Shown here piece after piece: positions 1 through 64,000 of a stretch of 64,000 nucleotides of DNA. The notes beneath the pieces were generated by a model. It was given only the letters and a program-made list of their open reading frames with translations, was not told the origin of the DNA and ran no database searches. Location: positions 1 through 64,000 of IMG/VR virus record IMGVR_UViG_3300027833_000001; one strand, 5' to 3'. Numbering within the stretch: the stretch's first letter is position 1; each line of letters starts with the position of its first letter. Both the position numbers and the translations under genes were made by a program. The DNA is from a virus.

Positions 1-269
1 TCCCGTTCTATAAAGTTCTAGCAGGTTGGAGTGGTGGTTACTTGGATGGCTCCTCATGGAGAATGAATAGTGGTATTACTCTTGTGTTTGATCGTGAAGA
101 TGAATTTCATTTCCATGGTGAAAGCGGTTCACTCTACAGATGCCCTAAAGGAGCCTACGGACTTAAAATGAGTACTGCTGGTATCTATAAGGATTTGTGT
201 TCACAGCAACACTTTAAGGGCCAGATTATATTGATGCCAGAAGATACCGACTGGATGGAGTTGATATGA
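1..269 (+). CDS. Hypothetical phage protein, 5' end probably outside the window
   Basis: ORF track gives 42..269; the frame appears open back to the window edge; stop overlaps the next start (ATGA). Confidence 0.6.
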   Translation, partial: PFYKVLAGWSGGYLDGSSWRMNSGITLVFDREDEFHFHGESGSLYRCPKGAYGLKMSTAGIYKDLCSQQHFKGQIILMPEDTDWMELI

Positions 270-817
270 AAATTAAAATAGGCAAGTATCCAACACATAG
301 ATGGTATCACAACTTTCTATATGAAAAGTTTGGTATCGGTAATGAGCCTAAAGTATCTGTGCATATAGATGACTTTGATACCTGGAGTATGGATCATACG
401 TTAGCACATATCATTGAGCCGATGCTGAAGCAACTCAAACTTACCAAGCACGGTGCTCCTTACGTATATCCAGAAGATGTGCCAGCAAAGTTGCGCCCTA
501 CTAAGAAAGAACTAACAGCATACACTAAAAATGGTGATACTGATCCTAAGTTCTTTGAGCGTTGGGATTGGGTATTAGATGAAATGATTTTTGCCTTTGA
601 GAGCAAACATACAGACTGGGAAACCCAGTTTTCATCCGGTGAACATGACATTCAGTGGGTTAAACTAATTGAAGGTAAACTCAAAGGTCATAGTAAAATG
701 GTCAAAGGTCCTAACGACACATATGAGGTTGATTGGGAAGGGCGTACAGCATACCAAGAGCGTATCTCAAACGGCTTCAAATTGTTTGGCAAGTATTATG
801 AAAATCTTTGGGATTAG
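266..817 (+). CDS. Hypothetical phage protein
   Basis: 183 aa ORF with coupled start and phage-like composition; no recognised motif. Confidence 0.75.
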   Translation: MKIKIGKYPTHRWYHNFLYEKFGIGNEPKVSVHIDDFDTWSMDHTLAHIIEPMLKQLKLTKHGAPYVYPEDVPAKLRPTKKELTAYTKNGDTDPKFFERWDWVLDEMIFAFESKHTDWETQFSSGEHDIQWVKLIEGKLKGHSKMVKGPNDTYEVDWEGRTAYQERISNGFKLFGKYYENLWD

Positions 818-872
818 AGCAAGCGAGAGATTTCACGCATATATAGTATAACATTAGTAAAGGAAAATTGTA

Positions 873-1190
873 ATGCCAACATATAGTTTCAAGAATAAAG
901 AAACTGGTGAAGAATGGGAAGAGTTTATGTCCATATCTGCTAGTGAAGAATTGGTAGAAAATAGTAACGGAAATATACATAAACTCCCAACAACCATGGC
1001 AATTATTGGTGGTACGGGTGATTCTGTCAAACCAAAAGGAGACTTTAAAGAAGTTCTCTCACGTATCGCTGATCAAAATCCATACGCACCAATAGCGAAT
1101 GAGTATGGCAAGAAAGATCCAACTTCAGTCAAACTCAGAAATGTGGTAGACAATGTTAGAAAGAAAGTGGGTCCAGCAATTGATAGTTAA
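873..1190 (+). CDS. FmdB-like putative regulatory protein (T4-like phage family, Cys-less)
   Basis: N-terminus MPTYSFKNKETGEEWEEFMSIS is typical of this family; SD AAGGA. Confidence 0.6.
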   Translation: MPTYSFKNKETGEEWEEFMSISASEELVENSNGNIHKLPTTMAIIGGTGDSVKPKGDFKEVLSRIADQNPYAPIANEYGKKDPTSVKLRNVVDNVRKKVGPAIDS

Positions 1191-1913: not shown

Positions 1914-3163
1914 AAAGATTTTCAACATTTCTAACCGAAGACGCAAATGGCAAAAACTTGCATTTGGAGCATCTCGAGGACGAAATTATTAATTCTGGAA
2001 TTGGCGGTGCTAGAGGCGCAGTCAACTTTCTTCGGTCATTAAGAGATATGATGGCTGGCAACTCACGTAGTTCCATTAACATGACTGTTAAATGGGATGG
2101 AGCTCCAGCTATTTTCGCGGGTATAGATCCTGCAGACGGTAAATTCTTTGTAGCTAAAAAGAGCGTGTTCAATAAGACACCTTTACTGTATAAGACTGCA
2201 AAAGAAATAGATTCCGATGCAAGATTACCCGCATCACTAAAACCCAAATTCAAGATTGCTCTCACAGAATTTAGTAAATTGGGTATCAAGAACGTCCTAC
2301 AGGGTGACTTGATGTATACGTCTGCCGATTTAGAAACGGACAAAATAGACGGTCAAACATATACAACATTTCAGCCCAACACAATCGTTTACGCAATTCC
2401 TAAAGGTTCATTTTTAGAGAGAAAGATGAAAGCCGCTAAGATCGGTGTAGTTTGGCACACTACATATACAGGAACGTCACTAGAAAACATGAAAGCATCA
2501 TTCGGTGCAGATACGAAGAGTCTTAGAAAACCTACGTCTATCTGGATGGATGATGCCACTTACAAAGATGAAAGTGGAACAGCCACATTTACTAAAGCAG
2601 AGACAGATCAAGTAACAGCTAAATTGTCTGAAGTTGGAAAAGCATTTGCCAAAATATCTTCTGCGGAATTAACAAAATTTTTAAGAATACAAGCATCAAT
2701 GGAAGGTAAATTTGTTGGCGCTAGTATAAAAACATATACAAATTCTAAAGTAAGAGTCGGTCAAGAAATTACTAATCCTAGTGAACACGCAAAAGGTTAC
2801 CTTACCTGGGTTGAAGAAAAATTCGACAAAGAAGCGGGAAAGGTTAAAACTGATAAAACGAAGAAAGCGATTGAGGACAAGAAGACAGCGACCCTCCGCG
2901 ATCTACGTAAGCTAACAGGCTTACTTGTAAACGTCATCATCTTCCAGAACTTACTAATATCTGCGAAGATGATGATAGTTTCCAAACTTAATAAGATAAA
3001 ACAATTAACTAACACATTTGTCAGAACTCCTAATGGATTTAAAGTAGTGAATCCTGAAGGATATGTTGCTATCGACAGAACATCTGGTCGGGCAGTAAAG
3101 CTAGTTGACCGAATGGAGTTTAGTTACAACAACTTCACCGCAATCAAGGCTTGGGACAGATAG
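1910..3163 (+). CDS. RNA-ligase-like covalent nucleotidyltransferase (DUF6267-like), probably head-packaged
   Basis: Ligase-superfamily-like motifs TVKWDG (K61), LQGD, PEGYV and AVKLV; N-terminus MKRFSTFLTE resembles the T4 capsid-targeting sequence. Confidence 0.6.
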   Translation: MKRFSTFLTEDANGKNLHLEHLEDEIINSGIGGARGAVNFLRSLRDMMAGNSRSSINMTVKWDGAPAIFAGIDPADGKFFVAKKSVFNKTPLLYKTAKEIDSDARLPASLKPKFKIALTEFSKLGIKNVLQGDLMYTSADLETDKIDGQTYTTFQPNTIVYAIPKGSFLERKMKAAKIGVVWHTTYTGTSLENMKASFGADTKSLRKPTSIWMDDATYKDESGTATFTKAETDQVTAKLSEVGKAFAKISSAELTKFLRIQASMEGKFVGASIKTYTNSKVRVGQEITNPSEHAKGYLTWVEEKFDKEAGKVKTDKTKKAIEDKKTATLRDLRKLTGLLVNVIIFQNLLISAKMMIVSKLNKIKQLTNTFVRTPNGFKVVNPEGYVAIDRTSGRAVKLVDRMEFSYNNFTAIKAWDR

Positions 3164-4296: not shown

Positions 4297-4297
4297 G

Positions 4298-7927: not shown

Positions 7928-9541
7928 ATGGCAGTAGACGTACTACTTTTTACGGGTATCTCCGCATATTCGTATGAAGTAACAAATATGAGTACCTCAC
8001 CTTCTTATGAAATGGCGATGCGAACATCAGGCACGTATCGAGTTGCCACCTACCTCAGAGAAACATATGATCTAAACGTAGAAGTTGTTGACTATCTACA
8101 CTCATGGACATATGAAGAACTAGTCGAAATCGTTGATAGTAGAGTAGACCGCAATACCAAACTAGTTGGTGTTGGAGGCATCTTCTATTTAAACACTCCC
8201 AATATAGCAAGTATATTTCAATACGTCAAGGAAAACTATGACGTAGTAACAGTGGCTGGCAGCCAAGGATTGTGGTCTATTGCATCCATACCCAACATAG
8301 ACTATGCCATAGTAGGATACGGAGAACTGGGTATCAGCGCAGTACTTGCTGGTAATCCAATATACTCAGAGAAATCAGTTTATCCTGGTGGACCAACGGT
8401 AAAAGTTGTTGAGTGTATGGACACAAAAGAGTACAATGCATTCCCTTGGAAAAATATTGGAATTGGATATGAAAAGCGAGACTTTGTAAGACCAGAAGAG
8501 ACACTATCATTTGAGACTTCAAGAGGATGTCGTTTTCAATGTGCATATTGTAACTTTCCTATTCTTGGTGTGAAAGATGACCACACAAGATCAGCCGAAG
8601 ACTTTGAACGCGATCTCAAGCGCAACTATGACACATGGGGTACAACAGATTACATTGTTACAGATGATACTTTTAATGATTACACAGACAAGATAACAAA
8701 GTACGCTGATGTAGTACAAGATTTATCATTTGAGGTTGACTTTACAGGATATATCCGTGCTGATTTAATGACACAGAGAAAGGGTGATTTAGAACAACTT
8801 GCTAGGATGAGATTCAATAGTCACTTATATGGAATTGAGTCAACAAACAGAGAATCAGCTAAAGCAATGGGTAAAGGTGGCGATCCTAAAAAGATTCTTG
8901 ATGGCATATTAGAAGCAAAAGAATATATGTTAAAGCAGACTGGGTACTATAGAGGTGAGATGAGTTTCATATGGGGGCTGCCGTACGAGACAAGAGAAAC
9001 GCTTGACTGGACATTTGATTGGATAGATAAAAATTGGCAGGGAGAAGCAATGTCAATGTTTGATCTCAGTATACCAATGGCAGGTCCACACGCTATTATT
9101 CGTAGCAATATACTCTCCACAAACCTAGATAAATACAATTATAGAAAGGCTCAACCAATAGAAATATCTAACATTGATGTTCAACTACAACAAATTTTAG
9201 ATGACCCTAATGTTGATGATTTCAATAAGAATAGAATGCGTTTGATGAAACCGGATCCAAATGATCCATTGTATCAGATACACACGGTACTATGGAAAAA
9301 CGAACACTGGGATATGATTAGTGCGTGGTTAGGATGTCAAACAGAGTTATATGGCAACAAACGATACTGGGATAGAGGCATTCCAATCTTCAATCAAGCC
9401 AACTGGACATCGGTAGGATACAAAAAAACTGACTTATTGAAGTCATTTAGGGAACTTGGACTGACAATGCACCCACCTATAGAAAAAAGAAGAGCGGTTA
9501 TTGAAGAATACAAGCAGAATAAACTTTCCTGGGTATCTTAG
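7928..9541 (+). CDS. Radical SAM enzyme with B12-binding-like N-terminal region (class B-like architecture)
   Basis: ETSRGCRFQCAYC, VTDDTF, YGIES, IDYAIVGYGE and FIWGLPYET. Confidence 0.85.
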   Translation: MAVDVLLFTGISAYSYEVTNMSTSPSYEMAMRTSGTYRVATYLRETYDLNVEVVDYLHSWTYEELVEIVDSRVDRNTKLVGVGGIFYLNTPNIASIFQYVKENYDVVTVAGSQGLWSIASIPNIDYAIVGYGELGISAVLAGNPIYSEKSVYPGGPTVKVVECMDTKEYNAFPWKNIGIGYEKRDFVRPEETLSFETSRGCRFQCAYCNFPILGVKDDHTRSAEDFERDLKRNYDTWGTTDYIVTDDTFNDYTDKITKYADVVQDLSFEVDFTGYIRADLMTQRKGDLEQLARMRFNSHLYGIESTNRESAKAMGKGGDPKKILDGILEAKEYMLKQTGYYRGEMSFIWGLPYETRETLDWTFDWIDKNWQGEAMSMFDLSIPMAGPHAIIRSNILSTNLDKYNYRKAQPIEISNIDVQLQQILDDPNVDDFNKNRMRLMKPDPNDPLYQIHTVLWKNEHWDMISAWLGCQTELYGNKRYWDRGIPIFNQANWTSVGYKKTDLLKSFRELGLTMHPPIEKRRAVIEEYKQNKLSWVS

Positions 9542-11701: not shown

Positions 11702-12478
11702 ATGTCCGCATGGGGAAAAACAGACGATAAGACTAGTTCAGGTACTATAGCACTTACTACTGCAGGTGCTGTTACTGGAACTAGCACAGCTTTCACTACT
11801 GAAAGCGCAATTGGTGACACTCTCACCGCAAACGCAATCGATTTCAGAATCACTGCAATAGCATCTGATACTGCCGCTACGGTAGTAAATGCTAATGCTT
11901 CTGGTACTGCTATTGTAGCACAATCTGCAGGCGCCGCTTACACATTGAGCGAAAAGCCTAAATCTATTGGTTCTAATTCGGTTGGTGGTTACACCTCTGA
12001 AACTACATTTGGTGTAGATGAGAACGAAATGGCAGCCAACCCAGATATTGGTGCTGGTCATGCTGGATGGGTTCACGTAAGAACTAACGGATCTCGTAAA
12101 ATCTCAGAAACATTAGTAGCATTATCTAAGAATGGTATTACTGGCGATGCTGAAGATACAGAATTCGAAGATTACTTACTGTCTATCACTACTCAGCCAT
12201 CTAATAGCACTAAAGCTACTGGAGAAGCAGAGTCATTCACTGTAGTAGCCGCATCTACTGGAACTGGTGGTACGATTACGTTCCAATGGCAGTTGCAGAC
12301 AGGCGGTACAGGATCATTTGGTAACATATCAAATGCCGGTGTATACACTACAGCAACAACAGCTACTTTGAATATTTCAGACAACACAGGTCTTGGCACT
12401 AACAAGTACCGTTGTGTAGTTAGTAAAACAGGCGCAGATGATGTAACATCTACCGCTGCCACACTGACTGAAAGCTAA
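11702..12478 (+). CDS. Virion structural protein with C-terminal Ig-like domain (Hoc/decoration-like)
   Basis: MSAWGKTD N-terminus; Thr/Ala/Gly rich; ITTQP..FQWQ..YRCVV Ig pattern. Confidence 0.7.
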   Translation: MSAWGKTDDKTSSGTIALTTAGAVTGTSTAFTTESAIGDTLTANAIDFRITAIASDTAATVVNANASGTAIVAQSAGAAYTLSEKPKSIGSNSVGGYTSETTFGVDENEMAANPDIGAGHAGWVHVRTNGSRKISETLVALSKNGITGDAEDTEFEDYLLSITTQPSNSTKATGEAESFTVVAASTGTGGTITFQWQLQTGGTGSFGNISNAGVYTTATTATLNISDNTGLGTNKYRCVVSKTGADDVTSTAATLTES

Positions 12479-15773: not shown

Positions 15774-16457
15774 ATGTATCAAGAAGTGAATTTGATAGGT
15801 TTAACTACCCCGAGTGCTAACACAGGGTGTAACACGGCAGAAGAGTTAGTCGCTTATGCCGCCCGTGTTAGCAATCCGGGGAATCAAAGTAACAAACTCT
15901 CAGCACCAAAACTATTAGGGTATCTAATCAAAGAAAACCATTGGTCTCCTTTTGAGATGGTGTCTGTGACGTTGGAGATTAAAACTACAAGAGACATATC
16001 TAGACAGATTGTTCGCCATCGTAGTTTTAGTTTTCAAGAGTTTAGTCAACGGTATGCGGTATCTGAAGATTTCGTAACCCGTGAAGCACGACTACAAGAC
16101 AAGAAGAATCGACAGAATAGTATAGCTATTGACCGCTCAGATGTCAAGCAAATTGAACTTGCTGAAGAGTGGAATATGCAACAGATCAAACTAACAGAAA
16201 AAGTTAAAAAACTATACAAGTGGGCATTAGACAATGGCATAGCAAAAGAACAAGCACGTGCCATTCTGCCAGAAGGCAACACAGTGACTACATTGTATAT
16301 GTCTGGTACACTCAGAAGCTGGATACATTATTGTCAGTTGCGTATGGCAAATGGTACACAAGCAGAGCATATGGAAATTGCTCAACTCGCTTGGAATATA
16401 CTTGAAGGGCATTTCCCAAACACTACAACCGCAGTACGGGAACTAGATAATGATTGA
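15774..16457 (+). CDS. thyX: FAD-dependent thymidylate synthase
   Basis: HWSPFE, RHRSFSFQEFSQRY and EQARAILP. Confidence 0.95.
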   Translation: MYQEVNLIGLTTPSANTGCNTAEELVAYAARVSNPGNQSNKLSAPKLLGYLIKENHWSPFEMVSVTLEIKTTRDISRQIVRHRSFSFQEFSQRYAVSEDFVTREARLQDKKNRQNSIAIDRSDVKQIELAEEWNMQQIKLTEKVKKLYKWALDNGIAKEQARAILPEGNTVTTLYMSGTLRSWIHYCQLRMANGTQAEHMEIAQLAWNILEGHFPNTTTAVRELDND

Positions 16458-17313
16458 TAGAATTTACATACCGACTGTTCGTAGAGCAGACAATCAGATT
16501 ACTTTTGATAATCTTCCTAAAGAACTGCAAAAGCGAGTTGTTATGGTTGTCGAGCCAGGTGAAAGACACCTATACAATTACGACTGTGAGTATCTTGAGA
16601 TACCAGAAGAGTTTGTCGGTACGTGGACTCAATTAGCACAGACTAGACACTTCATTCACAAACACGCTGGATCTATTAAATATTGTGTTGCGGATGATGA
16701 TATCATTATTAGAAAAAGAAATTCTAGGTACTGGTCTGACATTTCTGATATGGAAAAGTCCAAGAGAAATGCTACCCAAGAAGAAATACTTAGATTATAT
16801 GAAACAGCAGATAAATGGTTTGATGAACACGATATTGGTGTTGTTGGTCTTTCAGATGCTGGAAGCCATCCAGGATTTGACGAATACCATGATACTAAAG
16901 ATGTGTACTCATACATATTCTATGATGGAAGAATGCTTTCAGAAGTCATTGATGACATAGACATATGTTCGTTGAGAATTGCAGAAGATGTTTTGTTTCT
17001 ATATGAAGTTTTATCTAGAGGAATAAACACTAGACGGTCTACGGAATTCATGTACGATAATAGAAGTATGGTAGACAAGAAACTTAAAAATACACGCGAA
17101 GTATGGACTGGTATGTATGAAAAAGAAGAAGATAGACCAGACAACTTTTACCAAAGCAAAGAACATTATGACGCTATGAGATATATTCAACAAAAGTATC
17201 CTCATGGAGTAAAGATTTTCGAAAAAGATGGAAAGATGAAGAACGTCAAGTATTGGAAAAAAGTTTATAACCCACATACTAAGCCATCTTTATCAGATTT
17301 ACTAGGAGAATAG
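16450..17313 (+). CDS. GT-A glycosyltransferase, TET-associated (TAGT)/GREB1-like
   Basis: IYIPTVRR, VVEPGE, VADDDI (DxD) and AEDVLFLYEVLSRG. Confidence 0.65.
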   Translation: MIDRIYIPTVRRADNQITFDNLPKELQKRVVMVVEPGERHLYNYDCEYLEIPEEFVGTWTQLAQTRHFIHKHAGSIKYCVADDDIIIRKRNSRYWSDISDMEKSKRNATQEEILRLYETADKWFDEHDIGVVGLSDAGSHPGFDEYHDTKDVYSYIFYDGRMLSEVIDDIDICSLRIAEDVLFLYEVLSRGINTRRSTEFMYDNRSMVDKKLKNTREVWTGMYEKEEDRPDNFYQSKEHYDAMRYIQQKYPHGVKIFEKDGKMKNVKYWKKVYNPHTKPSLSDLLGE

Positions 17314-17314: not shown

Positions 17315-18190
17315 ATGAAAATTGGATCAGACACAACCTTTGATGTATTGCGCGAAGGCGATGATATTGAACACCACAGAAACACCGTGCATGAATATGC
17401 TCAAGGATGGTGGGTAAACAAAGACGATGATATTCCTGGTGTTAAGGAAGCTATTCGATATTCAAATAAACGTGCATTAAAATTCAAAGAGCCTTATGTG
17501 ACTCCATGGTTTTCTACTGACGCTGAAGATGTGTGGTTAAAAAATATGGAAGAAAAACCAGAAATAATGGCAGACTATGGTTGGGCAGATCCAGATAATC
17601 AAATCATCTACAACTTCAATTCAAATGGATTTAGAGATGAAGAACTCACCGACTACGATGATTGTTGGCTTGCTGTAGGAGAATGTTTTACTTTTGGTTC
17701 AGGACTGCATGACGAAAATATCTGGGTAAGAAGAGTTGAAAAACATTTTGGTACAAAAATTTGGAATTTAGCACACTGTACAACTGGATTTGATTATACT
17801 TTTAGAGTAATTTTAGGGTTACTAGATGAATTGAAGCCATCTAAAGTATTAGTGTTAGAACCAGTTCCAATAACTCGGGAAGTTTATGTAGACGGTAAAC
17901 CAGAATGGCCAGGGGATTGGTCAGACGATCACTGGATGAGAAATATTGCTGGTGACAAAGTAGAACGCTATGTTTCCAGAGTAAAAAATTATTTTGCATT
18001 GAAGCATTTTTTAGAATCACGAGGAGTAGAACTTGTTTTCGTATCCTCAGATGAAAGACATAACATGGCAATGCAATCATGGGAAGAAAAGAGTAGTGGT
18101 TTCGGTGCGGCAGCCAGAGATTTGATGCATCCGGGAAATCACTTTCACGAATTATTATTACAACATTGGAAGAAAAAACTTGGAGAATAA
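17315..18190 (+). CDS. SGNH-like protein (Cys at the catalytic Ser position)
   Basis: NSNGFR, VGECFTFG, WNLA and RDLMHPG. Confidence 0.55.
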   Translation: MKIGSDTTFDVLREGDDIEHHRNTVHEYAQGWWVNKDDDIPGVKEAIRYSNKRALKFKEPYVTPWFSTDAEDVWLKNMEEKPEIMADYGWADPDNQIIYNFNSNGFRDEELTDYDDCWLAVGECFTFGSGLHDENIWVRRVEKHFGTKIWNLAHCTTGFDYTFRVILGLLDELKPSKVLVLEPVPITREVYVDGKPEWPGDWSDDHWMRNIAGDKVERYVSRVKNYFALKHFLESRGVELVFVSSDERHNMAMQSWEEKSSGFGAAARDLMHPGNHFHELLLQHWKKKLGE

Positions 18191-18478: not shown

Positions 18479-20278
18479 ATGGCAAAGCAAGAATATTTAG
18501 GACTACAGATAGATCCATCGCGGGATAGTCTATTCGATAAACTGGGACTGGCGCGACTGAAAGAAAGTTATATGCGGGATGACGAAGATAGTCCTCAACA
18601 GAGATTTGCCTATGTAAGTAAGCAGTTCGCTAGTAATCCAGAACACGCGCAAAGATTGTATGAATATAGCAGTAAGCATTGGCTATCATACTCTACACCA
18701 ATTCTATCTTATGGTAAATCAAAGAAAGGTATGCCAATATCATGCTTTTTAAATTACATCAACGACACTGCGGAGGGATTGGTTGAGAATTTATCGGAAA
18801 CAAACTGGCTTAGTATGCTCGGCGGTGGTGTGGGGATCGGTTTTGGTATCCGTGCTGCCGATGACAAATCTGTTGGCGTCATGCCTCATCTTAAAACCTA
18901 CGACTCAAGTAGTCTCGCATATCGACAAGGAAAAACTAGACGAGGAAGTTATGCCGCATACCTCGATATCAGTCATCCAGACATTACCATGTTTTTGGAA
19001 ATGCGTAAAGGCACCGGTGATCAGAATGTTCGATGTTTGAATCTGCACCACGGTGTCAATGTAACAGATCGATTTATGGATGTCATAGAACGATGTATGT
19101 TGGACCCCGAGGCTGATGATGGTTGGAATCTATGTGACCCACACACGGGTGAAGTCAGAGAGACAGTATCAGCAAAAGCATTATGGCAAAGAATATTAGA
19201 AATGCGAATGGAAACTGGTGAACCCTACATTCACTACATCGATACTAGTAACAGACATTTGAATCAGTTTCAAAAAGATTTGGGACTAAAGATACACCAG
19301 AGTAATCTATGCTCAGAGATTATCTTACCTACAAACAAAGACAGAACAGCCGTATGCTGTTTATCATCTGTCAACTTAGAACACTATGACGCTTGGAGTA
19401 AGGATAGCTTATTTCTAAGAGACATGGCTGAAATGTTGGACAATGTATTGCAATTCTTTATTGATAATGCACCAGCTGAAGTGAGTCGAGCAGTATTTTC
19501 GGCAACACAAGAGCGTAGTATTGGCATAGGTGCCTTAGGCTTTCACGCTTACTTACAGAAGAAAGGACTACCATGGGAAAGCGCACTAACAACTGGTGCT
19601 AATCTCAGGATGTTCAAACTAATAAGGAGTAGATTAGATGAAGCAAACATTCAACTTGGCACGGAACGAGGTGAAGCTATTGATGCAAGAGGCACCGGAA
19701 GACGGTTTAGTCATGTTATGGCTATTGCTCCCAATGCTAGTAGTAGCATTATTATGGGAAACACTTCTCCGTCTATTGAACCCTATCGTGCAAATGCTTA
19801 CAGACAGGATACCATCAGTGGAGCGTTTCTCAATAAGAATAAGCATTTGGATATCCTTATTAAGGATAAAATTAAAGATGATCCTAAGCTGGACTATGAA
19901 GAAATTTGGTCGTCAATAATTGCCAATGATGGATCAGCACAGCACCTCAAATGTCTTGATGAAAATGAGAAGTTAGTGTATAAGACTGCAATGGAGATAG
20001 ACCAGAGATGGGTGATTGAACACGCATCAAAACGTCAAGCATTTATCGACCAAGCACAGTCACTTAACCTGTTCTTTAGACCTGATGTAAATATCAAGTA
20101 CCTTCATGCAGTACATTTCCTAGCATGGAAACAAGGACTGAAGACATTATATTATTGCCGTTCAGAGAAACTTGGTAAAGCCGATAAGGTAGCCAATCGA
20201 ATTGAGCGCAGAATTACGAAAGAACTTGACATGACCGCACTAGCAAATGACGAAGAATGTCTGGCATGTGAAGGTTGA
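18479..20278 (+). CDS. nrdA: Ribonucleotide reductase class I alpha subunit (short, no ATP cone)
   Basis: PISCFL, QSNLCSEI, AVCCL, IAPNASSS, IDQAQSLN, KTLYY and C-terminal CLAC. Confidence 0.95.
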   Translation: MAKQEYLGLQIDPSRDSLFDKLGLARLKESYMRDDEDSPQQRFAYVSKQFASNPEHAQRLYEYSSKHWLSYSTPILSYGKSKKGMPISCFLNYINDTAEGLVENLSETNWLSMLGGGVGIGFGIRAADDKSVGVMPHLKTYDSSSLAYRQGKTRRGSYAAYLDISHPDITMFLEMRKGTGDQNVRCLNLHHGVNVTDRFMDVIERCMLDPEADDGWNLCDPHTGEVRETVSAKALWQRILEMRMETGEPYIHYIDTSNRHLNQFQKDLGLKIHQSNLCSEIILPTNKDRTAVCCLSSVNLEHYDAWSKDSLFLRDMAEMLDNVLQFFIDNAPAEVSRAVFSATQERSIGIGALGFHAYLQKKGLPWESALTTGANLRMFKLIRSRLDEANIQLGTERGEAIDARGTGRRFSHVMAIAPNASSSIIMGNTSPSIEPYRANAYRQDTISGAFLNKNKHLDILIKDKIKDDPKLDYEEIWSSIIANDGSAQHLKCLDENEKLVYKTAMEIDQRWVIEHASKRQAFIDQAQSLNLFFRPDVNIKYLHAVHFLAWKQGLKTLYYCRSEKLGKADKVANRIERRITKELDMTALANDEECLACEG

Positions 20279-20292: not shown

Positions 20293-20910
20293 ATGAAATT
20301 ATACATATCAGTACCAGCAGAAAAAAGAATTGCAGTAGTTGTTTCTGGTGGTTGGGATAGCGCCTGTCTTTGGTATATGGTAAAGAGTATTTGTCTCAAA
20401 AGAGGACAAGAATGTACTGCTTACACCGTACCTAAAATAGATGGCGCTGAACATTATGCCAACCTCGTATTGAAATGGGCAAGTGAGAAGTTAGGATATG
20501 GATTTGAGCCTACCCGCATTGTCGGTAAGATAACCTCAGAAAATCCTTCAGACTACGTAACGAGTGGCGCACATGAAATTTTTGATAAGGGATACGCAGA
20601 CTATCTCTTTAATGGAATGAATGCATACCCACCAAATCAAAGGGAAATGATGCCATCTGGCTATCCAATGCCCAATGATAGGTTTACACCAACAGAGAAT
20701 GAACGTAAATATGTAGGACATCCGTTCGCAGATTTAACAAAAGATCAGACCATACAGTTAGGCTTTGAATTAGGCATAGCAGAAGATATTATGCCTATTA
20801 CACATAGCTGTACAGAACAAGATCGTGGTCGATGTAATGATTGTTGGTGGTGCAAGGAGCGTGAATGGGGTTTTAATCAAATAGGCAAAAAGGACAAAGG
20901 AAATGAGTAA
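20293..20910 (+). CDS. QueC-like PP-loop ATPase
   Basis: VSGGWDS PP-loop, HPFADLTK and THSC..RCNDCWWCKER zinc motif. Confidence 0.7.
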   Translation: MKLYISVPAEKRIAVVVSGGWDSACLWYMVKSICLKRGQECTAYTVPKIDGAEHYANLVLKWASEKLGYGFEPTRIVGKITSENPSDYVTSGAHEIFDKGYADYLFNGMNAYPPNQREMMPSGYPMPNDRFTPTENERKYVGHPFADLTKDQTIQLGFELGIAEDIMPITHSCTEQDRGRCNDCWWCKEREWGFNQIGKKDKGNE

Positions 20911-42894: not shown

Positions 42895-43269
42895 ATGATG
42901 TCAGATGAAACACCCAAACCAGAAGTAGAAGAAAGTGCTGAGTATGAAAACTTTCTAGGACAGAAAGCGACTGAGTATGAAGCTCCTTCATTATCTGATG
43001 TCCTTGGAGTGGATCAAGAAGACTTACGTGGTAGTGTAAACCCAGTCAAAGATCATTGGGTAGGTATGCCAGAATACGAACATAAAAAAGATGCTGGTCC
43101 ATTTAAATCTATCAATGTACATTTTCGCAACGAAGAAGATTATCAAGCATTTGCTGAACTGCTAGGTACTGGTTTAACAAAGAGAACAAAAAGCATTTGG
43201 TATCCAAAACAATCTATTACAGCAAATTCATTAATGCGTTGGATGCAGGAAGATGATGCCGATGCGTAG
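42895..43269 (+). CDS. Conserved partner of phage GREB1/TAGT-like glycosyltransferases
   Basis: WVGMPEY..VHFRNEEDYQAFAELLG..TKSIWYP; overlaps the GT gene. Confidence 0.6.
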   Translation: MMSDETPKPEVEESAEYENFLGQKATEYEAPSLSDVLGVDQEDLRGSVNPVKDHWVGMPEYEHKKDAGPFKSINVHFRNEEDYQAFAELLGTGLTKRTKSIWYPKQSITANSLMRWMQEDDADA

Positions 43270-44197
43270 TAATCAATATCCAATTTACATAGTATCTAAG
43301 GGTAGACATGAATCCATGTTTACTTCTAGAAGTCTTGATAAGATGAATACGCAACATTACATTGCTATTGAACCACAAGACTATGACAACTATGTACAAG
43401 CGTTCGTAGAGTTCGGTATTACTACTGCTACTCTTTTAGTTCTACCCTTTAGCAATCATGGTGATGGACCTGGTCGCGCACGTAATTGGTGTTGGGATCA
43501 TTCGATGCAAAATGGCTTTGATGCTCATTGGGTACTTGATGATAACATACAATCATTCTATAGATTCAATGATAACATACGAATACGTGTGGGCTCAAGT
43601 GTATTCTTTAGAGTAATGGAGGATTTCTTTGACCGATACGATAATCTTTATATTGCTGGTCCTCAGTACCGCTTTTTTATTGCACCCAATCAGAGTTATC
43701 CGCCTTTTGTGGCGAACACTCGTATTTACTCTTGCCTTCTTATTAGGAATGATTGTTCTCACAGATGGCGAGGTAGATACAACGAAGATACGGACATCTG
43801 CTTGCGAGTTCTTAAGGACGGAGACTGCACAGTCCAATTTAACGCCTTCTTACAGGGCAAAGTTGCAACACAAACTGTAAAGGGGGGAAATTCCACTGAG
43901 TTCTATCATAAGGAGGGTATGGAAGAAGGGTTATCTGAAGAACAAGTTGCACAGATGACAAAGGAGAAAGGTGAAAGATATAACATCGATGGCACCATAA
44001 ATAAATCACAGATGCTGGAGGATATGCACCCAGATGTAGCCAGAGTAGTTTGGCGATACGGAAGGTGGCATCACTATGTTGATTATTCATCTTTTAAAAA
44101 GAATAAATTAATCTTGAAAGAAGGAGAAACATTGCCCAATGTGAAAGTAGATAACTATGGCATGAAGCTAGTTACCCTTGAAGAGAAAATAACTTAA
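43253..44197 (+). CDS. GREB1/TET-associated-like glycosyltransferase (putative DNA base glycosylation)
   Basis: YPIYIVSKGR, ARNWCWD, HWVLDDNI, YSCLLI, WRGRYNEDTD and KGGN. Confidence 0.7.
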   Translation: MMPMRSNQYPIYIVSKGRHESMFTSRSLDKMNTQHYIAIEPQDYDNYVQAFVEFGITTATLLVLPFSNHGDGPGRARNWCWDHSMQNGFDAHWVLDDNIQSFYRFNDNIRIRVGSSVFFRVMEDFFDRYDNLYIAGPQYRFFIAPNQSYPPFVANTRIYSCLLIRNDCSHRWRGRYNEDTDICLRVLKDGDCTVQFNAFLQGKVATQTVKGGNSTEFYHKEGMEEGLSEEQVAQMTKEKGERYNIDGTINKSQMLEDMHPDVARVVWRYGRWHHYVDYSSFKKNKLILKEGETLPNVKVDNYGMKLVTLEEKIT

Positions 44198-44309: not shown

Positions 44310-44591
44310 ATGACAACTCAAACTGTAACTACTAAATCTAGCCAAGTCCTTTCTGCCTTTATGGCGGGTGAAGAACTTTCAGCTGGTCAATTGAAGCAAC
44401 GCTTTCAAGTCGGCAACCCTACTGCAACTGTTTCGGCACTGCGAATGAAGGGCTATGCTATTTACCTTAACCAAGGCACCAAAGACTCTAGGGGTCGACT
44501 CGGTGTCTCTAAGTATCGATTAGGTTCGCCTAGTCGTGCTGTAATTGCGGCTGGATATCAAGCACTAGCGGCTGCGGCAAAGACTGCATAG
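44310..44591 (+). CDS. Small winged-HTH DNA-binding protein
   Basis: GEELSAGQLKQRF..NPTATVSALRMKGYAIY. Confidence 0.7.
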   Translation: MTTQTVTTKSSQVLSAFMAGEELSAGQLKQRFQVGNPTATVSALRMKGYAIYLNQGTKDSRGRLGVSKYRLGSPSRAVIAAGYQALAAAAKTA

Positions 44592-46098: not shown

Positions 46099-48566
46099 TA
46101 ATATTGACTCCTAATTAATTGTTGTAGTGTACCGTGATTCTCTTTCGACAAATCATACATTGTTCTGTTGTTGTCTTTGAGTTGACCTCCCAGATACACT
46201 TGATCTTGTAAATAAACTTGATCGCTTGCTGTCATCGTGTTATTGTAGTATGCACTCAAGTCTGTTCCAACCGCAATAGACTGTAACGCGACTGTTTGCC
46301 CTTGAGCGGCAATGTTTGACTTCTCTTCTCTTGCTTTCTTGTTGGCATCTGCCATCTTTTCGGCTAATGACTTTACTGGTTCTATCTCTTGCATAATCAT
46401 ATCTGTTACTGGCTCTATAATAGAGAATCCAATAGGCGCTGAATCGCCCAATGCGACATTTTGCCCTATCTGTTCTATATTCATTGCGAACTGAGTGTTG
46501 GAAGACCCTGTACCATCGTCACCTCCGCTCTCTCCAGACATTTGTGTGAATAACTGAGTATCACTACCAAATATTGCGCTTGAATTCAACTCAACACCAA
46601 TTTGACCGCCGTTATTACCGGTATTGAACTGTTGCGAACCGTTATCAGAGCCGTCAGCGTACTGATTTGAGCCGTTATTTTGTGATCCTGCCGATCCATC
46701 GCTATTTTGTTGTTGATTTTGATTTGATTGACCGGAATTTTGATTCATATCTTGTACATTTCCGTTATTTTGACTATTATTAGAAACATTTCCGTTGCTT
46801 TGACTATTATTAGAAACATTTCCGTTGCCATTGTTGTTTTTACCCGCACTATTGCTAGAATTTGTCTCTATACTTGAAATTAATTTACTTGTTGTTGATA
46901 ATGAGAGTGATAAAGCTAACTTGTTGCCACCTTTTTTGCTTGGACTGCTTGGCTTTGATAATTCTTCCAGTGATCCCGGCTCTTCAAGTACTTCTTCCTC
47001 TGCTTCTTCTTCTCTGATATCTCTTTCCGCTCTAGATTCGTCAGGACGATCTTCTTCCAAGTCTGCAATGTCTTCAATTTCCTCAAATAGTTCTTCTTGT
47101 GGTTCTTCAAAACTTCTTTCAAAGTCTTGGATGTCTTCAAACTGTTCTTCAAAGAATGGTTCTTCCCTAGGCATAGGAAAATTTTCTGGTCTTTCTTGAT
47201 GTTCATGTGGAGCCAATCCTGGTAAATCTTCAGGTCGTTCTATCATTACCAGTTCGAAGGCTCCAGCTTCTTGAAATTCTTCTCCGGGTATGAACTCTTC
47301 GCTAATAGGGGGTGCGGGATAAAATGTCCCTTCTTCTGGAATGTCAAATCCGCCTTGAAAATCTTCTTGGTGTCCATCTGGTACGGACCCAAACGTGAAA
47401 AGAGATCCATCTGCATCTTCTCTAGGCATATCCCCTGTCTCATTGCTAAATCCATAAAATTCCTCCTCTGACACTCCGAAACTATCTTCAAATGATTGTC
47501 CGTCATCTTGACCACCATTATTGGATCCATCGAAAGGGTCATTATTAAAGTTGGGTTGTCCGTCATCTTGTCCGTCATCAGGTCCAAAAGCAAAATTGTC
47601 ATCTTCCCAGTAATCTTCAAAGTCATCCATCATATAGCCAGGACAGAACTGGTCAGATTGTGGATCGTTATTACATTCGTTTTCGTATACTGCTTCATCA
47701 TAGAACTCGCACTCTGAGTTTGATGTTTGATCATCATTACATTGTTGTGCAAATACGGCAGCCGCATATCCAGGACAAGTAGAATCATTCAATGCGTTAG
47801 AACAATCAACACTTGCTACTGAAGAGTAACCACCGTCTGTACCATACCATGCTCTACCACCCGGTACTGTCTCTGAATGAAAGTCTATATTAAATTCTGT
47901 AAAATTGCTATCTGCAAATTGTAGCTGATTCAACTCCGACTCGTTATCCTCATTTGCTGTTAAGTCACCAGTAAATCCAATAAACACATCGTGGTTTGTT
48001 ATATCAACTTCATCATATACAAAATCAAACGAATTGTCGGTATGTATATTGACTTGGAATGTGTTCTTGTTGTTATTATAGTATTCATTTACATTGTACC
48101 ACAGAAATGACGAACCTGAATTACTGGTTTCATAAAAGAATCCACTATTAGCACCATTAGTCTTGTCTATTATGTCAGTCCATAAAGGAGCTATCATATA
48201 ACTGTAGGGAGTTATATTACCACCCGCTGATTCTAATGCTTTAAGATTAAGTCCATCACAACACAAACTTCGGTTAAAGTTATTGATCGAGGCATTTCCT
48301 AATCTGCTATTACCAATTCCAGATGATGAATCATAGAACATAAGAAAACCATTAGTTGACATCCATGCATCATTAAATGTGCCACCATAGTATGTGAATG
48401 AATGTCCTAAAGATATCTTCATAATAGAGTCATCAAAATTTTGTCCATCCATAACTTGCGTCATACCAGAAGGGCTTAATAGGTCTGGAGACGCATGAGT
48501 ATTATTGCCAAATGTGCCTACCAAAAGATAGGCTAGAAAAAATAACCCTGCAAACCAATTACGCAT
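46098..48566 (-). CDS. Large exported protein: NIDO-like domain, Cys repeats, acidic and Asn/Gln-rich regions
   Basis: Signal peptide; FTYYG..STNGFL..IAPLWTD..NTFQ; three C-x8/9-C repeats ending CPGY/CEFY. Confidence 0.65.
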   Translation of the reverse strand: MRNWFAGLFFLAYLLVGTFGNNTHASPDLLSPSGMTQVMDGQNFDDSIMKISLGHSFTYYGGTFNDAWMSTNGFLMFYDSSSGIGNSRLGNASINNFNRSLCCDGLNLKALESAGGNITPYSYMIAPLWTDIIDKTNGANSGFFYETSNSGSSFLWYNVNEYYNNNKNTFQVNIHTDNSFDFVYDEVDITNHDVFIGFTGDLTANEDNESELNQLQFADSNFTEFNIDFHSETVPGGRAWYGTDGGYSSVASVDCSNALNDSTCPGYAAAVFAQQCNDDQTSNSECEFYDEAVYENECNNDPQSDQFCPGYMMDDFEDYWEDDNFAFGPDDGQDDGQPNFNNDPFDGSNNGGQDDGQSFEDSFGVSEEEFYGFSNETGDMPREDADGSLFTFGSVPDGHQEDFQGGFDIPEEGTFYPAPPISEEFIPGEEFQEAGAFELVMIERPEDLPGLAPHEHQERPENFPMPREEPFFEEQFEDIQDFERSFEEPQEELFEEIEDIADLEEDRPDESRAERDIREEEAEEEVLEEPGSLEELSKPSSPSKKGGNKLALSLSLSTTSKLISSIETNSSNSAGKNNNGNGNVSNNSQSNGNVSNNSQNNGNVQDMNQNSGQSNQNQQQNSDGSAGSQNNGSNQYADGSDNGSQQFNTGNNGGQIGVELNSSAIFGSDTQLFTQMSGESGGDDGTGSSNTQFAMNIEQIGQNVALGDSAPIGFSIIEPVTDMIMQEIEPVKSLAEKMADANKKAREEKSNIAAQGQTVALQSIAVGTDLSAYYNNTMTASDQVYLQDQVYLGGQLKDNNRTMYDLSKENHGTLQQLIRSQY
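46756..46828. repeat. 30-bp coding tandem repeat (about 2.4 copies)
   Basis: ACATTTCCGTTRYTTTGACTATTATTAGAA at 46756, 46786 and 46816; encodes NGNVSNNSQ. Confidence 0.9.
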
Positions 48567-49877: not shown

Positions 49878-50609
49878 ATGAGAAAAGCAGTACTTAAACA
49901 AAACAATTCCTGGGCACCCATCACATTGTTGATTAGCCAACTGATCGCTCAGGTGTCATTGATACCTATGATCATGTACGCACAGTCTTGGCAATGGATA
50001 CCATTCATCGCTGTCTATTGCGCTATGATGTTAGGTGTTACAATGGGATATCATCGATACTGGTCACACCATGCATTCAAGTGCAATAAAGTTATTGAGT
50101 ATGTTATGATGTTCTTTGCTCACGTTATGATGATCGGTCCAGCAATTACTTGGGCAGCCAATCATAGAGAACATCATAGATATGCTGATACGGAAAAAGA
50201 TCCACATTCACCTCACTATAGAGGTTGGCTTCTTGCATACTTTGGACAAGTTCTTATTAATATAAACTTCAAGTATGCCCGAGACTTATTGAAGCAGAAG
50301 TTATGTCGAGATCAGGTAAAGTATTATTGGCACGTTATAGGAGCATATGCTCTCTTGTTAGTTTTGATTGATCCGTTTGCTTTAATATATGCTTGGTTAG
50401 CACCAGCAGGTGCCGCTAAGTTGATTGGCTCTTTCGTATTTACATTTTCACATAGAGGCAAAGAAGCGCATAGTGATACTTGGTTAGGAATTATAACACT
50501 TGGTGAAGGTTTTCATAAAGCACACCATGATCACGGTAACAGACAAATTCTTTGGCATAAACTTGACCTTGGAGGACAGTTAATCAGACTTATTGATAAA
50601 ACTGCTTAA
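49878..50609 (+). CDS. Fatty acid (delta-9-type) desaturase
   Basis: His boxes HRYWSH, HREHH and GEGFHKAHH; DPHSP; TM helices. Confidence 0.92.
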   Translation: MRKAVLKQNNSWAPITLLISQLIAQVSLIPMIMYAQSWQWIPFIAVYCAMMLGVTMGYHRYWSHHAFKCNKVIEYVMMFFAHVMMIGPAITWAANHREHHRYADTEKDPHSPHYRGWLLAYFGQVLININFKYARDLLKQKLCRDQVKYYWHVIGAYALLLVLIDPFALIYAWLAPAGAAKLIGSFVFTFSHRGKEAHSDTWLGIITLGEGFHKAHHDHGNRQILWHKLDLGGQLIRLIDKTA

Positions 50610-61145: not shown

Positions 61146-62410
61146 GTGATGATATTTTTCCAATAAAAACTGCTACAGCCTGTCAATTCAAATGGTCATG
61201 GAGTACAATATTCTTATCTAAGGGTACAACTACAAGTTGTCACCGTTGCAACCATTGGGAATTTGATTTAAGCACACTCAAAGACTTTCATAATCTTCCT
61301 GGAAAGATTGGTGATAGAGAGAAGATGCTTGATGGTTTATGGCCAGGGAATGGATGTGAGTATTGTAAGAAGATTGAAGATGTTGGTGGTTCTAGTGAAC
61401 GTACAGCTTGGATAAACAAAAAAGATTTGATACCACCTGAGATTCTTGCTGGTGATATGAAAGCAACTAAAGTTACTCCACGTTTATTAGAAGTTTACTT
61501 TACCAACGTATGTAATCAAGCCTGTGTCTATTGTACTCCCCAATTCAGTTCCCAAATCGAAGCAGAACTTAGAAAGCACGGAGAAATACCAGCTAATCCT
61601 AGCTACATGAATCATCCTAGTATTGGCGATAACTATCCATTGTATCTACAGAAATTTTGGGAGTGGATGGAAGAACACGGATCAAAACTGTATGAGTTTC
61701 AGACTCTTGGTGGCGAACCTATGTATCAAAAAGAGTTTGAGCAGTGTATAAACTTCTTTGATAAACATCCAAATCCAAATCTCATTTGGAGAATCTTCAG
61801 CAATCTAAAGCATGATGAAGAGAAATTTAAAAAGAAGATTCAAAAAGTTAATGATCTTATTGCAAACAAAAAGATACGAGAGTTTCATATTGTTGCAAGC
61901 CAAGATTGTTGGGGTCCTCAAGCAGAGTACGCCAGATATGGAATGAATCTAAAGAACTGGGAAGCTAATCTCAGATATTGTTTATCACAGGGTGTTCCCG
62001 TTAATATCCATATGACAATCAGCGCACTGACTATTCCTACTCTAGGAGATTTCATAGACAAGATTTACAGTCTACGTAAAGAATACAAAGCAGGATTATG
62101 GATTAGTTCTAACACTATTGTTAAACCTGAATGTTTAGATCCATATATTTTTGGTGATAAAATTGCATTTTACTTAGAAGATGTTCTTACTAAGCTAACT
62201 GATCCAAATGACAAAGATCAGAAAGAATGTTTAGAAGGCATTCTTGTAGGAATGAAGTCTAGTAAAGTAAATATAAAAGAAGTAAATGATTTTAAAAATT
62301 ATTTGGATGAGATTGATAGGAGACGAAATACGAATTGGCGAATTCTTTATCCTGTTATCAGTGATATAACGGAGACAATTACGGAGAATATAATTGGCAC
62401 GTCAAGATGA
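61142..62410 (+). CDS. Radical SAM enzyme (paralog 6)
   Basis: ACQFKW..SCHR..CEYC; CNQACVYC; LGGEP. Confidence 0.9.
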   Translation: MSDDIFPIKTATACQFKWSWSTIFLSKGTTTSCHRCNHWEFDLSTLKDFHNLPGKIGDREKMLDGLWPGNGCEYCKKIEDVGGSSERTAWINKKDLIPPEILAGDMKATKVTPRLLEVYFTNVCNQACVYCTPQFSSQIEAELRKHGEIPANPSYMNHPSIGDNYPLYLQKFWEWMEEHGSKLYEFQTLGGEPMYQKEFEQCINFFDKHPNPNLIWRIFSNLKHDEEKFKKKIQKVNDLIANKKIREFHIVASQDCWGPQAEYARYGMNLKNWEANLRYCLSQGVPVNIHMTISALTIPTLGDFIDKIYSLRKEYKAGLWISSNTIVKPECLDPYIFGDKIAFYLEDVLTKLTDPNDKDQKECLEGILVGMKSSKVNIKEVNDFKNYLDEIDRRRNTNWRILYPVISDITETITENIIGTSR

Positions 62411-63980
62411 GCCTTTAACTGCCAATCAGGGCGATAGGATAATATTACTTTTAGAACGTATTGCAGAAGCACTTGAACATCCAAAACTTAGCCACAATAC
62501 GACCACGATATCTAATACTATTCCTAGACCGAATCTTGGTAGATATGAACAGGCAGAGTATCCAGAAATTACTTTCAATGTATTCTTTGATAGATTCAAT
62601 GAGTCTGTTACTAACCCCAATGGTAATGGACAAGCACAATACCCTCCAAATGGAAGTTTAAAAGATCATATTTGGGATACTATTTTCCAAAGAATGAAAA
62701 CACATACGTTTGCAATAAGAGCATACGATGTAAAAGACTATGAAAGCGCATCAAAGTCATTTGATGAGAATGATGTCAATATTTTCCCAGTAGATTTGTG
62801 GGTAGATATGGAATTTGGCAAATCAATATCATCAATATCAGATAACGCAAAGAAGCTAATTGCAGACAAAAAACTATCACTGTTCTTATGTCTAATGGGT
62901 GAAGCGTTTGGATGTGATTATGAAGACTGGATAGCTAAACTCTCACAAGCAATTATAGGACATGGTCTTGCACAAGGTAAGATTGCAATATCATGTGCTG
63001 ACTTACGATTCCCAGAAAACTACGAAGAGTGGTCTAAAGACAATACTAAAATAACTTCCATGTTTAAATTTGAGAATATATTTCCATATGAATATTTTCA
63101 GTTGTTATATGCAGAACAATTTCAAGCAAGAACTGGTAGATGGTTACCTGAAGGCAAGCCAGCTAAATTCGGTAATATAGATGCACTAAGACCTATAAGC
63201 GAGGCTGAAGTCATGTTGAGTGTTCCTGATGGAACTACTAAGACTAAAGACTTCTTATGTATGAATGCCAGATCGAGACCACATAGAATTGCTATGGTAT
63301 CAGAACTGCATAGATTAGGATTAGATAATAACTTTATTAGTTTATTGTTTAGAGGTGATGATGTTGATAGTATTGTTAACCAAGATGGAATAATTAATTT
63401 TATCCGCAATGAATATATGGACACTGAAGCGAAACTAAATCACTTCAACACAATGTTTGTTAAGAATAGAAGTAAGAGAAAAATAATACTAGATGCAGAT
63501 GAAGCAGTCCATGCAGATGATAGAATACTTAATACCAAATATTTTGATGAGTCTTATTTTAGTCTTGTTACAGAAACAAATTTTGGAGTAACACTTGGTG
63601 AAGGTCAATTTCATCAAGAGTCATACAACACAACGATGTTTATTACAGAGAAGACATTTAAACCTATAGCGTATTTTCATCCTATTATTGTTTTAGGATC
63701 TCCTTATACATTAGCATTTTTAAAAGACGAGGGTTACGATACTTTCGAAGAGATGTTTGATGAGTCATATGATTTAATACTTGATCCACAAGAACGCTTT
63801 AACGCTGTTGTTACCCAAGTGAACAACTGGTGTAGAAAACCAGAAAAAGAAAAACGAGAGATATACGATTCAGTTAAGAAGAAGTTACATCACAATCATT
63901 GCCACTTTATCGGTAGATTTGATACACTGAGAAGAAGGGAGAAAAACTACTACAGGTATTTAGGGGCAAAATTAAGATGA
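62394..63980 (+). CDS. Putative GT-B glycosyltransferase-like protein (GT10/exostosin-like C-terminus)
   Basis: FLCMNARSRPHR, SYFSLVTET and FITEKTFKPI..PIIVLG; TTG start with SD GGAG. Confidence 0.55.
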   Translation: MARQDEPLTANQGDRIILLLERIAEALEHPKLSHNTTTISNTIPRPNLGRYEQAEYPEITFNVFFDRFNESVTNPNGNGQAQYPPNGSLKDHIWDTIFQRMKTHTFAIRAYDVKDYESASKSFDENDVNIFPVDLWVDMEFGKSISSISDNAKKLIADKKLSLFLCLMGEAFGCDYEDWIAKLSQAIIGHGLAQGKIAISCADLRFPENYEEWSKDNTKITSMFKFENIFPYEYFQLLYAEQFQARTGRWLPEGKPAKFGNIDALRPISEAEVMLSVPDGTTKTKDFLCMNARSRPHRIAMVSELHRLGLDNNFISLLFRGDDVDSIVNQDGIINFIRNEYMDTEAKLNHFNTMFVKNRSKRKIILDADEAVHADDRILNTKYFDESYFSLVTETNFGVTLGEGQFHQESYNTTMFITEKTFKPIAYFHPIIVLGSPYTLAFLKDEGYDTFEEMFDESYDLILDPQERFNAVVTQVNNWCRKPEKEKREIYDSVKKKLHHNHCHFIGRFDTLRRREKNYYRYLGAKLR

Positions 63981-64000
63981 AAATAAATTTATTCTATGAT
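63977..64000 (+). CDS. Start of next gene, truncated by the window end
   Basis: ATGA overlap with the previous stop; MKINLFYD. Confidence 0.5.

Follow-up and report, generated by a model that had tools for sequence, protein, structure and literature searches.

The stretch of DNA considered here, referred to as the window, comprises the first 64 kb (positions 1 to 64,000) of the virus record IMGVR_UViG_3300027833_000001, a complete genome of 165,127 bp with direct terminal repeats and 38% G+C, and the feature in question is the pentanucleotide GCWGC, which is avoided throughout this genome unless a particular base stands beside it. In its major capsid protein, the phage shares 69% identity with Methylophilales phage Melnitz, 67% with Pelagibacter phage HTVC008M and about 62% with cyanomyophages. 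The gene psbA was not found in the phage genome, and at least 12 studies of marine metagenomes contain the phage in the form of assembled contigs. The capsid likeness, the lack of psbA and the occurrence in marine metagenomes therefore characterize it as an uncultured marine T4-like phage. No close cultured relative was found by megablast and tblastn searches of the window genes against cultured phages.

A GCWGC site is termed flanked if G occupies position −1 or C occupies position +1; sites with neither flank are HGCWGCD, and sites with both are GGCWGCC. Expected numbers were obtained from 200 codon shuffles, in which every protein and the codon usage of each gene were kept. The sites of the window are the following, with no strand assigned to any of them:

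1..64000, purge of HGCWGCD over the whole window, 0 sites against 43 ± 4.5 under the codon-shuffled null
8258..8264, GGCAGCC, both flanks, read as GGC AGC (Gly-Ser), not Ala-Ala
8976..8982, GGCTGCC, both flanks, read as GGG CTG CCG, not Ala-Ala
12031..12037, GGCAGCC, both flanks, read as ATG GCA GCC
12454..12460, CGCTGCC, 3' C flank only
18109..18115, GGCAGCC, both flanks
18853..18859, TGCTGCC, 3' C flank only
22098..22104, GGCAGCC, both flanks, read as TGG GCA GCC
26849..26855, GGCTGCC, both flanks
35877..35883, GGCTGCT, 5' G flank only
37209..37215, GGCAGCC, both flanks, read as GGG CAG CCA, not Ala-Ala
41478..41484, GGCAGCC, both flanks
44570..44576, GGCTGCG, 5' G flank only
47757..47763, GGCAGCC, both flanks
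50153..50159, GGCAGCC, both flanks

The window thus holds 14 GCWGC sites and the complete genome 49, all 49 with G at −1 or C at +1. The original prediction, made from the letters of the window, had given the same 14 places and flanks, which proved exact (its coordinates being the first base of each heptamer), and its claim that HGCWGCD is missing holds for the window and for all 165,127 bp. When all NGCWGCN heptamers of the genome were counted against the codon-shuffled null, HGCWGCD was far from expectation (0 against 131 ± 7.6), sites with one flank were reduced (18 against 51 ± 6.2) and doubly flanked sites were in excess (31 against 6.3 ± 2.4). The corresponding numbers for one and two flanks in the window are 4 against 20.5 ± 4.1 and 10 against 2.3 ± 1.4, and a first-order Markov model of the genome gave similar expectations (0 against 111, 18 against 47 and 31 against 4.9 for none, one and both flanks).

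In-frame Ala-Ala pairs account for 45 of the 49 genome sites, and the three other sites within genes are all GGCWGCC. Where the preceding codon ends in a base other than G, Ala-Ala is encoded by GCS GCN in 167 cases and by GCW GCC in 11; GCS GCD was found 162 times against no GCW GCD. After a codon ending in G, the forms are GCW GCC (26), GCW GCD (7) and GCG GCD (2), and GCC makes up 74% of the second alanine codons, against its usual share of 13% of Ala codons. The codon-pair table bears out the earlier claim that Ala-Ala pairs avoid GCWGC despite the prevalence of GCA and GCT among Ala codons; it shows that GCWGC is removed mostly by synonymous recoding and that C at +1 is under active selection even where G already stands at −1. 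As a by-product of the recoding of Ala-Ala, GCCGC (110 against 23) and GCGGC (76 against 27) are enriched 3-5 fold genome-wide, while GGCSGC shows no enrichment, the genome tolerating G-flanked GCWGC but not GGCC.

The tetranucleotide GGCC is itself purged from the genome, with 18 copies against 178 expected; 15 of the 18 are unavoidable Trp-Pro dipeptides (TGG CCN), and VGGCCB does not occur. Nine copies lie in the window (4097, 15299, 17907, 24057, 33302, 58612, 59283, 60682 and 61341) and nine more outside it. In the forced Trp-Pro sites, the Pro codon is CCA in nine cases, CCC in five, CCG in one and CCT in none, CCT being 34% of Pro codons; the Trp-Pro dipeptide is under-represented (15 against 27 expected). 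Ala-Ala pairs are mutationally trapped by the avoidance of GGCC, which explains why GGCWGCC is 5-6 fold in excess here. A positive function of GGCWGCC was considered and is unneeded, as the funnelling of Ala-Ala after G-ending codons into the exempt form accounts for the excess.

The same dependence on a neighbouring base was found at other depleted sites of this genome. The rule tested was that the outermost G or C of a depleted site is repeated just outside it, so that a GG/CC step lies at the boundary. For nine other depleted G/C-ended palindromes, namely, CAGCTG, CTCGAG, CTGCAG, CTTAAG, GAGCTC, GCATGC, GCTAGC, GTGCAC and GTTAAC, the outer base is repeated in 41 of the 43 survivors, with 13.7 expected under the null (p = 2e-18). 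Survivors in the window, again with no strand assigned, are the following:

1973..1978, CTCGAG, also at 3961 and 40869; C precedes or G follows in all four genome copies
2100..2105, GAGCTC, with a second copy at 31907-31912; all three genome copies are GGAGCTCC
2130..2135, CTGCAG, also at 11760, 11925 and 49612; all eight genome copies flanked
19473..19478, CAGCTG, also at 22419, 44380 and 45384; all 11 genome copies flanked
31075..31080, GTGCAC, 4 in the genome against 28 expected; all four G- or C-flanked
33171..33176, GTTAAC, also at 58506, 59462 and 63375; seven of nine genome copies flanked
43811..43816, CTTAAG, the sole genome copy against 50 expected; followed by G

The asymmetric sequence GAGCT/AGCTC is reduced about 8-fold (31 against 250), GGAGCT making up 27 of the 31 survivors, and HAGCTD is nearly normal in number. 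A host enzyme that recognizes this asymmetric 5-bp sequence, with the same flank exemption, is the suggested cause of the depletion. Exceptions to the rule are GGCC and CCGG, which are purged with no rescue by flanks. The original prediction had asked whether other depleted palindromes are rescued by overlap with GGC/GCC, and had placed protection in that context; rescue and dependence on flanks were found, while the limitation to GGC/GCC was not, since any repeat of the outer base, that is, any GG/CC step at the boundary, suffices. Selection by host restriction enzymes has purged GCWGC together with about a dozen further short palindromes.

For comparison with relatives, homologues of the second of two TAGT-family glycosyltransferase genes of the window (TAGT2) were searched for, giving about 450 IMG/VR loci, of which 80 were fetched and compared. 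GCWGC avoidance is polymorphic among the 80, and different relatives purge different sites. In the numbering used below, G000 is the genome under study and G001 its closest relative; the records of G006, G011 and G012 are incomplete. Observed and expected numbers of GCWGC are as follows:

G006: unflanked 0/121, one flank 69/58, both flanks 21/6.9
G012: unflanked 1/88, one flank 58/39, both flanks 4/4.2
G001: unflanked 0/62, one flank 19/26, both flanks 17/2.6
G011: unflanked 0/61, one flank 4/24, both flanks 7/2.2
G017, G018, G019 and G021 together: unflanked 0/154, one flank 2/59, both flanks 7/5.5
G004, non-avoider: unflanked 136/159, one flank 117/78, both flanks 18/9.5
G010, non-avoider: unflanked 199/105, one flank 73/43, both flanks 6/4.2

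In avoiders, unflanked GCWGC is always purged and doubly flanked GCWGC always spared, and the tolerance of a single flank ranges from complete to none. The rule extends to other sites. In 76 avoided genome/site pairs pooled from 12 genomes, with GCWGC left out, G-ended sites are present at 0.09, 0.155 and 0.55 of expectation with zero, one and two G/C flanks, and C-ended sites at 0.014, 0.25 and 0.76; in the same pool, no gradient was found with any other flanking base, and none for A/T-ended sites. GATC is present in G011 in 7 copies against 341 expected, five of them GGATCC and two AGATCC, and all six GTGCAC of G004 (33 expected) are GGTGCACC. If GG/CC steps are protected, hexamer palindromes starting with GG or CC should rarely be avoided, and this is what was found: they are avoided in 2 of 33 genome/site pairs, with a pooled observed/expected ratio of 1.03, and the other G/C-ended hexamers in 64 of 145.

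Cultured phages follow the rule as well. HTVC008M, infecting SAR11 strain HTCC1062, contains 83 GATC where 294 would be expected, each of them in the form GGATC or GATCC; its 14 GTATAC sites all obey the rule, and its GANTC survivors of the forms GAGTC and GACTC have G before them in 15 of 15 cases. In the 100 kb examined of KVP40, a vibriophage distantly related to T4, all 18 survivors of eight depleted hexamers of the form G...C are flanked, and the remaining copies of GTCGAC and GCATGC all carry a flank. T4-like loci gave 0/275, 13/108 and 10/10.6 (observed/expected) for GCWGC and 0/380, 122/188 and 67/23.5 for GTAC with zero, one and two flanks. Cyanophage-like gp23 loci were uninformative, as they avoid mainly GGCC, CCGG, CTAG and AGCT.

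Unrelated phages gave a different picture. Podophages HTVC011P and HTVC019P, isolated on the host strain of HTVC008M, contain no GATC, with 75 and 77 expected. Of 80 HTVC019P-like podophage loci from IMG/VR, 31 avoid GCWGC and 60 avoid GATC; the observed/expected numbers with zero, one and two flanks are 0/358, 0/130 and 0/11 for GCWGC in the former and 0/940, 0/342 and 0/29 for GATC in the latter. In the unrelated large myovirus Ma-LMM01, a phage of Microcystis, 5 of 15 survivors are flanked, which equals the null. These comparisons show that the exemption is a trait of the T4-like lineage and not of restriction enzymes. The SAR11 podophages lack GGCC as well as GATC, and, being without GGCC, they are also without the Trp-Pro dipeptide, so that the purge reaches the protein level.

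Genes possibly related to DNA modification or nucleotide metabolism in the window include a row at 15774-22107, consisting of thyX, TAGT1, orf291 (of no family), nrdA, a QueC-like gene and nrdB. The genes that bear on the search for a modifying enzyme are the following:

15774..16457, plus strand, ThyX, flavin-dependent thymidylate synthase (PF02511, 3.4e-43)
16450..17313, plus strand, TAGT-family glycosyltransferase 1 (TAGT1; PF20691 at 1.4e-8, a weak match; phrog_842), overlapping thyX by 8 nucleotides
20293..20910, plus strand, QueC-like PP-loop protein, matching in its C-terminal part only, with no queD, folE or dpdA beside it
43253..44197, plus strand, TAGT-family glycosyltransferase 2 (TAGT2; PF20691 at 3.4e-44, a strong match; phrog_842), the gene with about 450 IMG/VR loci

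TAGT1 lies inside the nucleotide-metabolism row with no evident substrate pathway. No C5-methyltransferase gene (PF00145) was detected in HTVC008M, four relatives or the complete genome of the phage, and no TET/JBP dioxygenase gene (PF12851) in the latter; the original prediction had advised a search for both beyond the window. Also absent from the complete genome are dCMP hydroxymethylase of the ThyA family, only ThyX being present, and QueD and FolE of the preQ0 pathway, the QueC-like match being only partial. TGT/DpdA (PF01702) was not found in the complete genome, HTVC008M or four relatives, and DpdA2 of phage nt-1 gave no tblastn match at E < 1 in the genomes examined, KVP40 (100 kb examined) included, a very divergent form being possible. 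The amino-methyltransferase motif IV, [DNST]PP[YFWH], was found in none of 207 open reading frames; N6/N4-methyltransferase (PF01555) was not detected here, the D12 class (PF02086) not having been searched for as a family, and N6/N4-methyltransferase was also not found in HTVC008M and three relatives.

The gene-content comparison of G000, its relatives, HTVC008M and part of KVP40 yielded no candidate enzyme. The only genes common to the phages compared are the T4 core and an unrelated row of ligase-like, nucleotidyltransferase and P-loop kinase genes. This row, at 1910-7683, encodes a 417-amino-acid ligase-like protein, a 211-amino-acid protein matching the N-terminal part of the annotated cytidyltransferase of HTVC008M, and a 608-amino-acid P-loop (zeta-toxin/AAA_33) kinase; it is kept in HTVC008M (gp127-gp131) and possibly serves NAD salvage (NadR-like) or RNA repair rather than DNA modification.

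Radical SAM proteins of large size (487-537 amino acids) are encoded at 7928-9541 and at 49878-64000, the latter running past the window. Their genes belong to a long operon of biosynthetic appearance or lie close to it. G001 and G002, the closest relatives, have this operon at 63-100% identity, and three of the proteins weakly match (21-25% identity) one radical SAM gene of KVP40. KVP40 also contains QueC-like, QueE-like and other radical SAM genes (133.5-137.2 kb and 153.7-154.6 kb). In HTVC008M, three genes are annotated as endonuclease V and more than 12 as 2OG-Fe(II) oxygenases, and a cluster of glycosyltransferase, methyltransferase, carbamoyltransferase and PP-loop (annotated NAD synthetase) genes lies beside nrdAB.

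The best explanation of these observations, and a somewhat probable one, is that phages of this T4-like lineage shield the GG/CC steps in their DNA, probably by a covalent mark of context-specific placement that a base or the backbone at the step receives after replication. By a rough estimate, about a fifth of all G lies in such steps. Restriction enzymes would not cleave where the outer base pair of a site falls within a marked step. One flank would make a site hemi-protected and two flanks fully protected; a difference between hemi- and full protection would result in graded selection and in an active preference for GCC in the second Ala position. Hemi-protection may be enough against some enzymes, as for GATC in HTVC008M and GCWGC in G006 and G012, and not against others. 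The exemption holds both for sites starting at the second G of a GG step and for sites ending at its first G, and therefore either both base pairs would be marked, or the phosphate between them. A phosphorothioate backbone of the Dnd/Ssp type, made by a cysteine desulfurase, a PAPS-reductase-like DndC/SspD protein and DndD, would be no more than a lead: GpsG and CpsC are known phosphorothioate steps, and the only PP-loop protein found here is the QueC-like one.

Several points weigh against this protection. No modification was observed directly. Enzymes of the known routes (C5-methyltransferase, TET/JBP, TGT/DpdA, ThyA-type hydroxymethylase, QueD, FolE and N6/N4-methyltransferase) are absent, and no DpdA2 match was obtained, so the putative modifying enzyme would lie outside all known DNA-modification families tested. 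T4 relatives without hydroxymethylcytosine (hmC) have been described as probably without major modifications, their escape from restriction being an open problem (PMC2993671). The podophage controls and the phage studied here may have different hosts. Finally, GGCC and CCGG hold GG/CC steps and are purged nevertheless, which requires an extra assumption: speculatively, either constantly marked sites could come under selection from insensitive enzymes only, or the mark could not be placed on both of two steps that abut on opposite strands.

The main rival explanation combines an intrinsic slowing of restriction enzymes beside GG/CC with T4-type break repair: T4-like phages, with their efficient repair of double-strand breaks and many genome copies, would tolerate slowly cut sites, which small podophages could not. 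Such an explanation needs no unknown enzyme, fits both the difference between T4-like phages and podophages and the absence of modification genes, and agrees with the retention of forced Trp-Pro GGCC sites in T4-like phages where podophages have eliminated them. However, doubly flanked sites remain at about 1.0 of expectation, which would demand an all-or-none effect across many enzyme families; a single flank is fully neutral in HTVC008M, G006 and G012; A-G flanks, which are purine-purine steps too, give no protection; and Ma-LMM01, also a large myovirus, is without the rule, in a small sample. We consider this explanation unlikely.

The original prediction had left a choice between a host enzyme cutting only HGCWGCD and protection on the side of the phage, and the evidence favours the latter, with its lineage-wide flank rule. 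An enzyme recognizing HGCWGCD would be blocked by either flank (G at −1, C at +1), with partial activity on sites that have only one, the DNA being unmodified. Restriction enzymes that exclude one flanking base exist, for example, PspXI (VCTCGAGB), of which HGCWGCD would be a formal analogue, and G006 (0/121 unflanked, 69/58 with one flank) and G012 (1/88, 58/39) show exactly the footprint of a 7-bp site. The exclusion found here differs from that of PspXI in being common to many sites and specific to a phage lineage: the outer-base rule also applies at GATC, GTAC, GCATGC, GTGCAC, GTTAAC, CTTAAG, CTCGAG, CAGCTG, CTGCAG and GAGCT, and its presence in several phages of different hosts would require many unrelated enzymes with one quirk. 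Moreover, C at +1 is selected here even with G at −1. Since podophages purge flanked GCWGC too (0/130 with one flank and 0/11 with two), an enzyme of this kind is quite improbable.

The route suggested by the original prediction, in which cytosines in GGC/GCC are methylated, oxidized by TET and glycosylated by the two TAGT proteins, or modified by an equivalent hmC route, has little to recommend it. Both genes named there do belong to the TAGT family (PF20691, phrog_842), and one of them is embedded in the nucleotide-metabolism row with thyX and nrdAB. Their role as modifiers did not stand: TAGT2 is present in GCWGC avoiders and non-avoiders alike, a TAGT1 homologue was not found in the rule-following G006, G011 and G012 (incomplete records), and HTVC008M and KVP40 obey the rule with no TAGT homologue found in either, so gene presence does not track the avoidance phenotype. 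The complete genome is without C5-methyltransferase, TET/JBP and ThyA-type hydroxymethylase, and protection also occurs in GGA, GGT, CCT and CCA contexts.

Least credible of all is a pure codon conflict, in which Ala-Ala GGCWGCC would only be trapped by GGCC avoidance and flanks would give no protection: GGCC is indeed purged as far as the proteins allow, and both single-step exits from G GCW GCC create it (G|GCC and GCG|GCC), but the open alternative G GCG GCD is used twice against 33 GCW forms, the three survivors outside Ala-Ala are all GGCWGCC, sites other than GCWGC obey the flank rule too, and relatives without GGCC avoidance, G018 and G020, show the same exemption (in G020, GGCC 38/37 and GCWGC 0/25, 4/11 and 3/1.1 with zero, one and two flanks), which refutes this conflict as the sole cause.

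Among known systems, the avoidance of restriction sites in lytic double-stranded DNA phages has been surveyed by Rusinov et al. (2018; PMC6286503), and methylases and restriction enzymes specific for GCWGC exist in aquatic bacteria (PMC6329791). Palindromes of the restriction-modification type are likewise strongly depleted here, mostly by synonymous recoding; the difference is that the purge depends on the neighbouring base and that flanked copies are neutral or enriched. No description of such a flank-conditional purge was found in the literature searched. DpdA of phage CAjan inserts dPreQ0 at GA, GGC and GGT, and that of phage iggy at GA only (PMC10484667), which provides a precedent for phage modification in short contexts, including GGC and GGT, where a mark shields overlapping sites. 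For phage 9g, the paper on it does not bear out a GGC context of dG+. The T4-like vibriophage nt-1 carries DpdA2, too divergent for ordinary searches (PMC6884629), so a DpdA system exists in T4-like phages. The present phage differs from these: searches for TGT/DpdA, DpdA2, QueD and FolE found none of them in it or in HTVC008M, sites with GA, for example, GATC, lack protection, and C-ended sites preceded by C have it as well.

Cassettes of TET, C5-methyltransferase and TAGT (PF20691, PF12851) share the TAGT glycosyltransferases with the phage studied here, but their defining methyltransferase and dioxygenase are absent from it, and TAGT does not track avoidance. Both TAGT proteins match phrog_842, the family of the beta-glucosyl-HMC-alpha-glucosyltransferase of T2 and T6, phages in which part of the hmC is left unglucosylated (PMC2993671). 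A protecting group on only part of the candidate residues is proposed here as well, although no dCMP hydroxymethylase was found. The heavy avoidance of sites means that most cytosines here are not protected, unlike in T-even phages with hmC.

We tentatively propose, as a real possibility, that T4-like phages without hmC, including this phage, HTVC008M and KVP40, whose DNA is widely held to be unmodified, carry an undescribed covalent mark at GG/CC steps, which would be made by an enzyme of no known family, would block many type II restriction enzymes and would have a specificity readable from the genome. Avoidance of restriction sites is textbook knowledge, while the sparing of sites by one neighbouring base is not, and no description of it was found. 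If the proposal is true, a hidden DNA modification or an equivalent shield exists in one of the most abundant phage lineages of the ocean, the cultured models HTVC008M and KVP40 included, which would bear on the question of how seemingly unmodified relatives of T4 escape restriction (PMC2993671). The specificity of DNA modification in phages would then be inferable from genome sequence, and statistics of site avoidance, as applied to the prediction of phage hosts and of host restriction-modification systems, need to be used differently.

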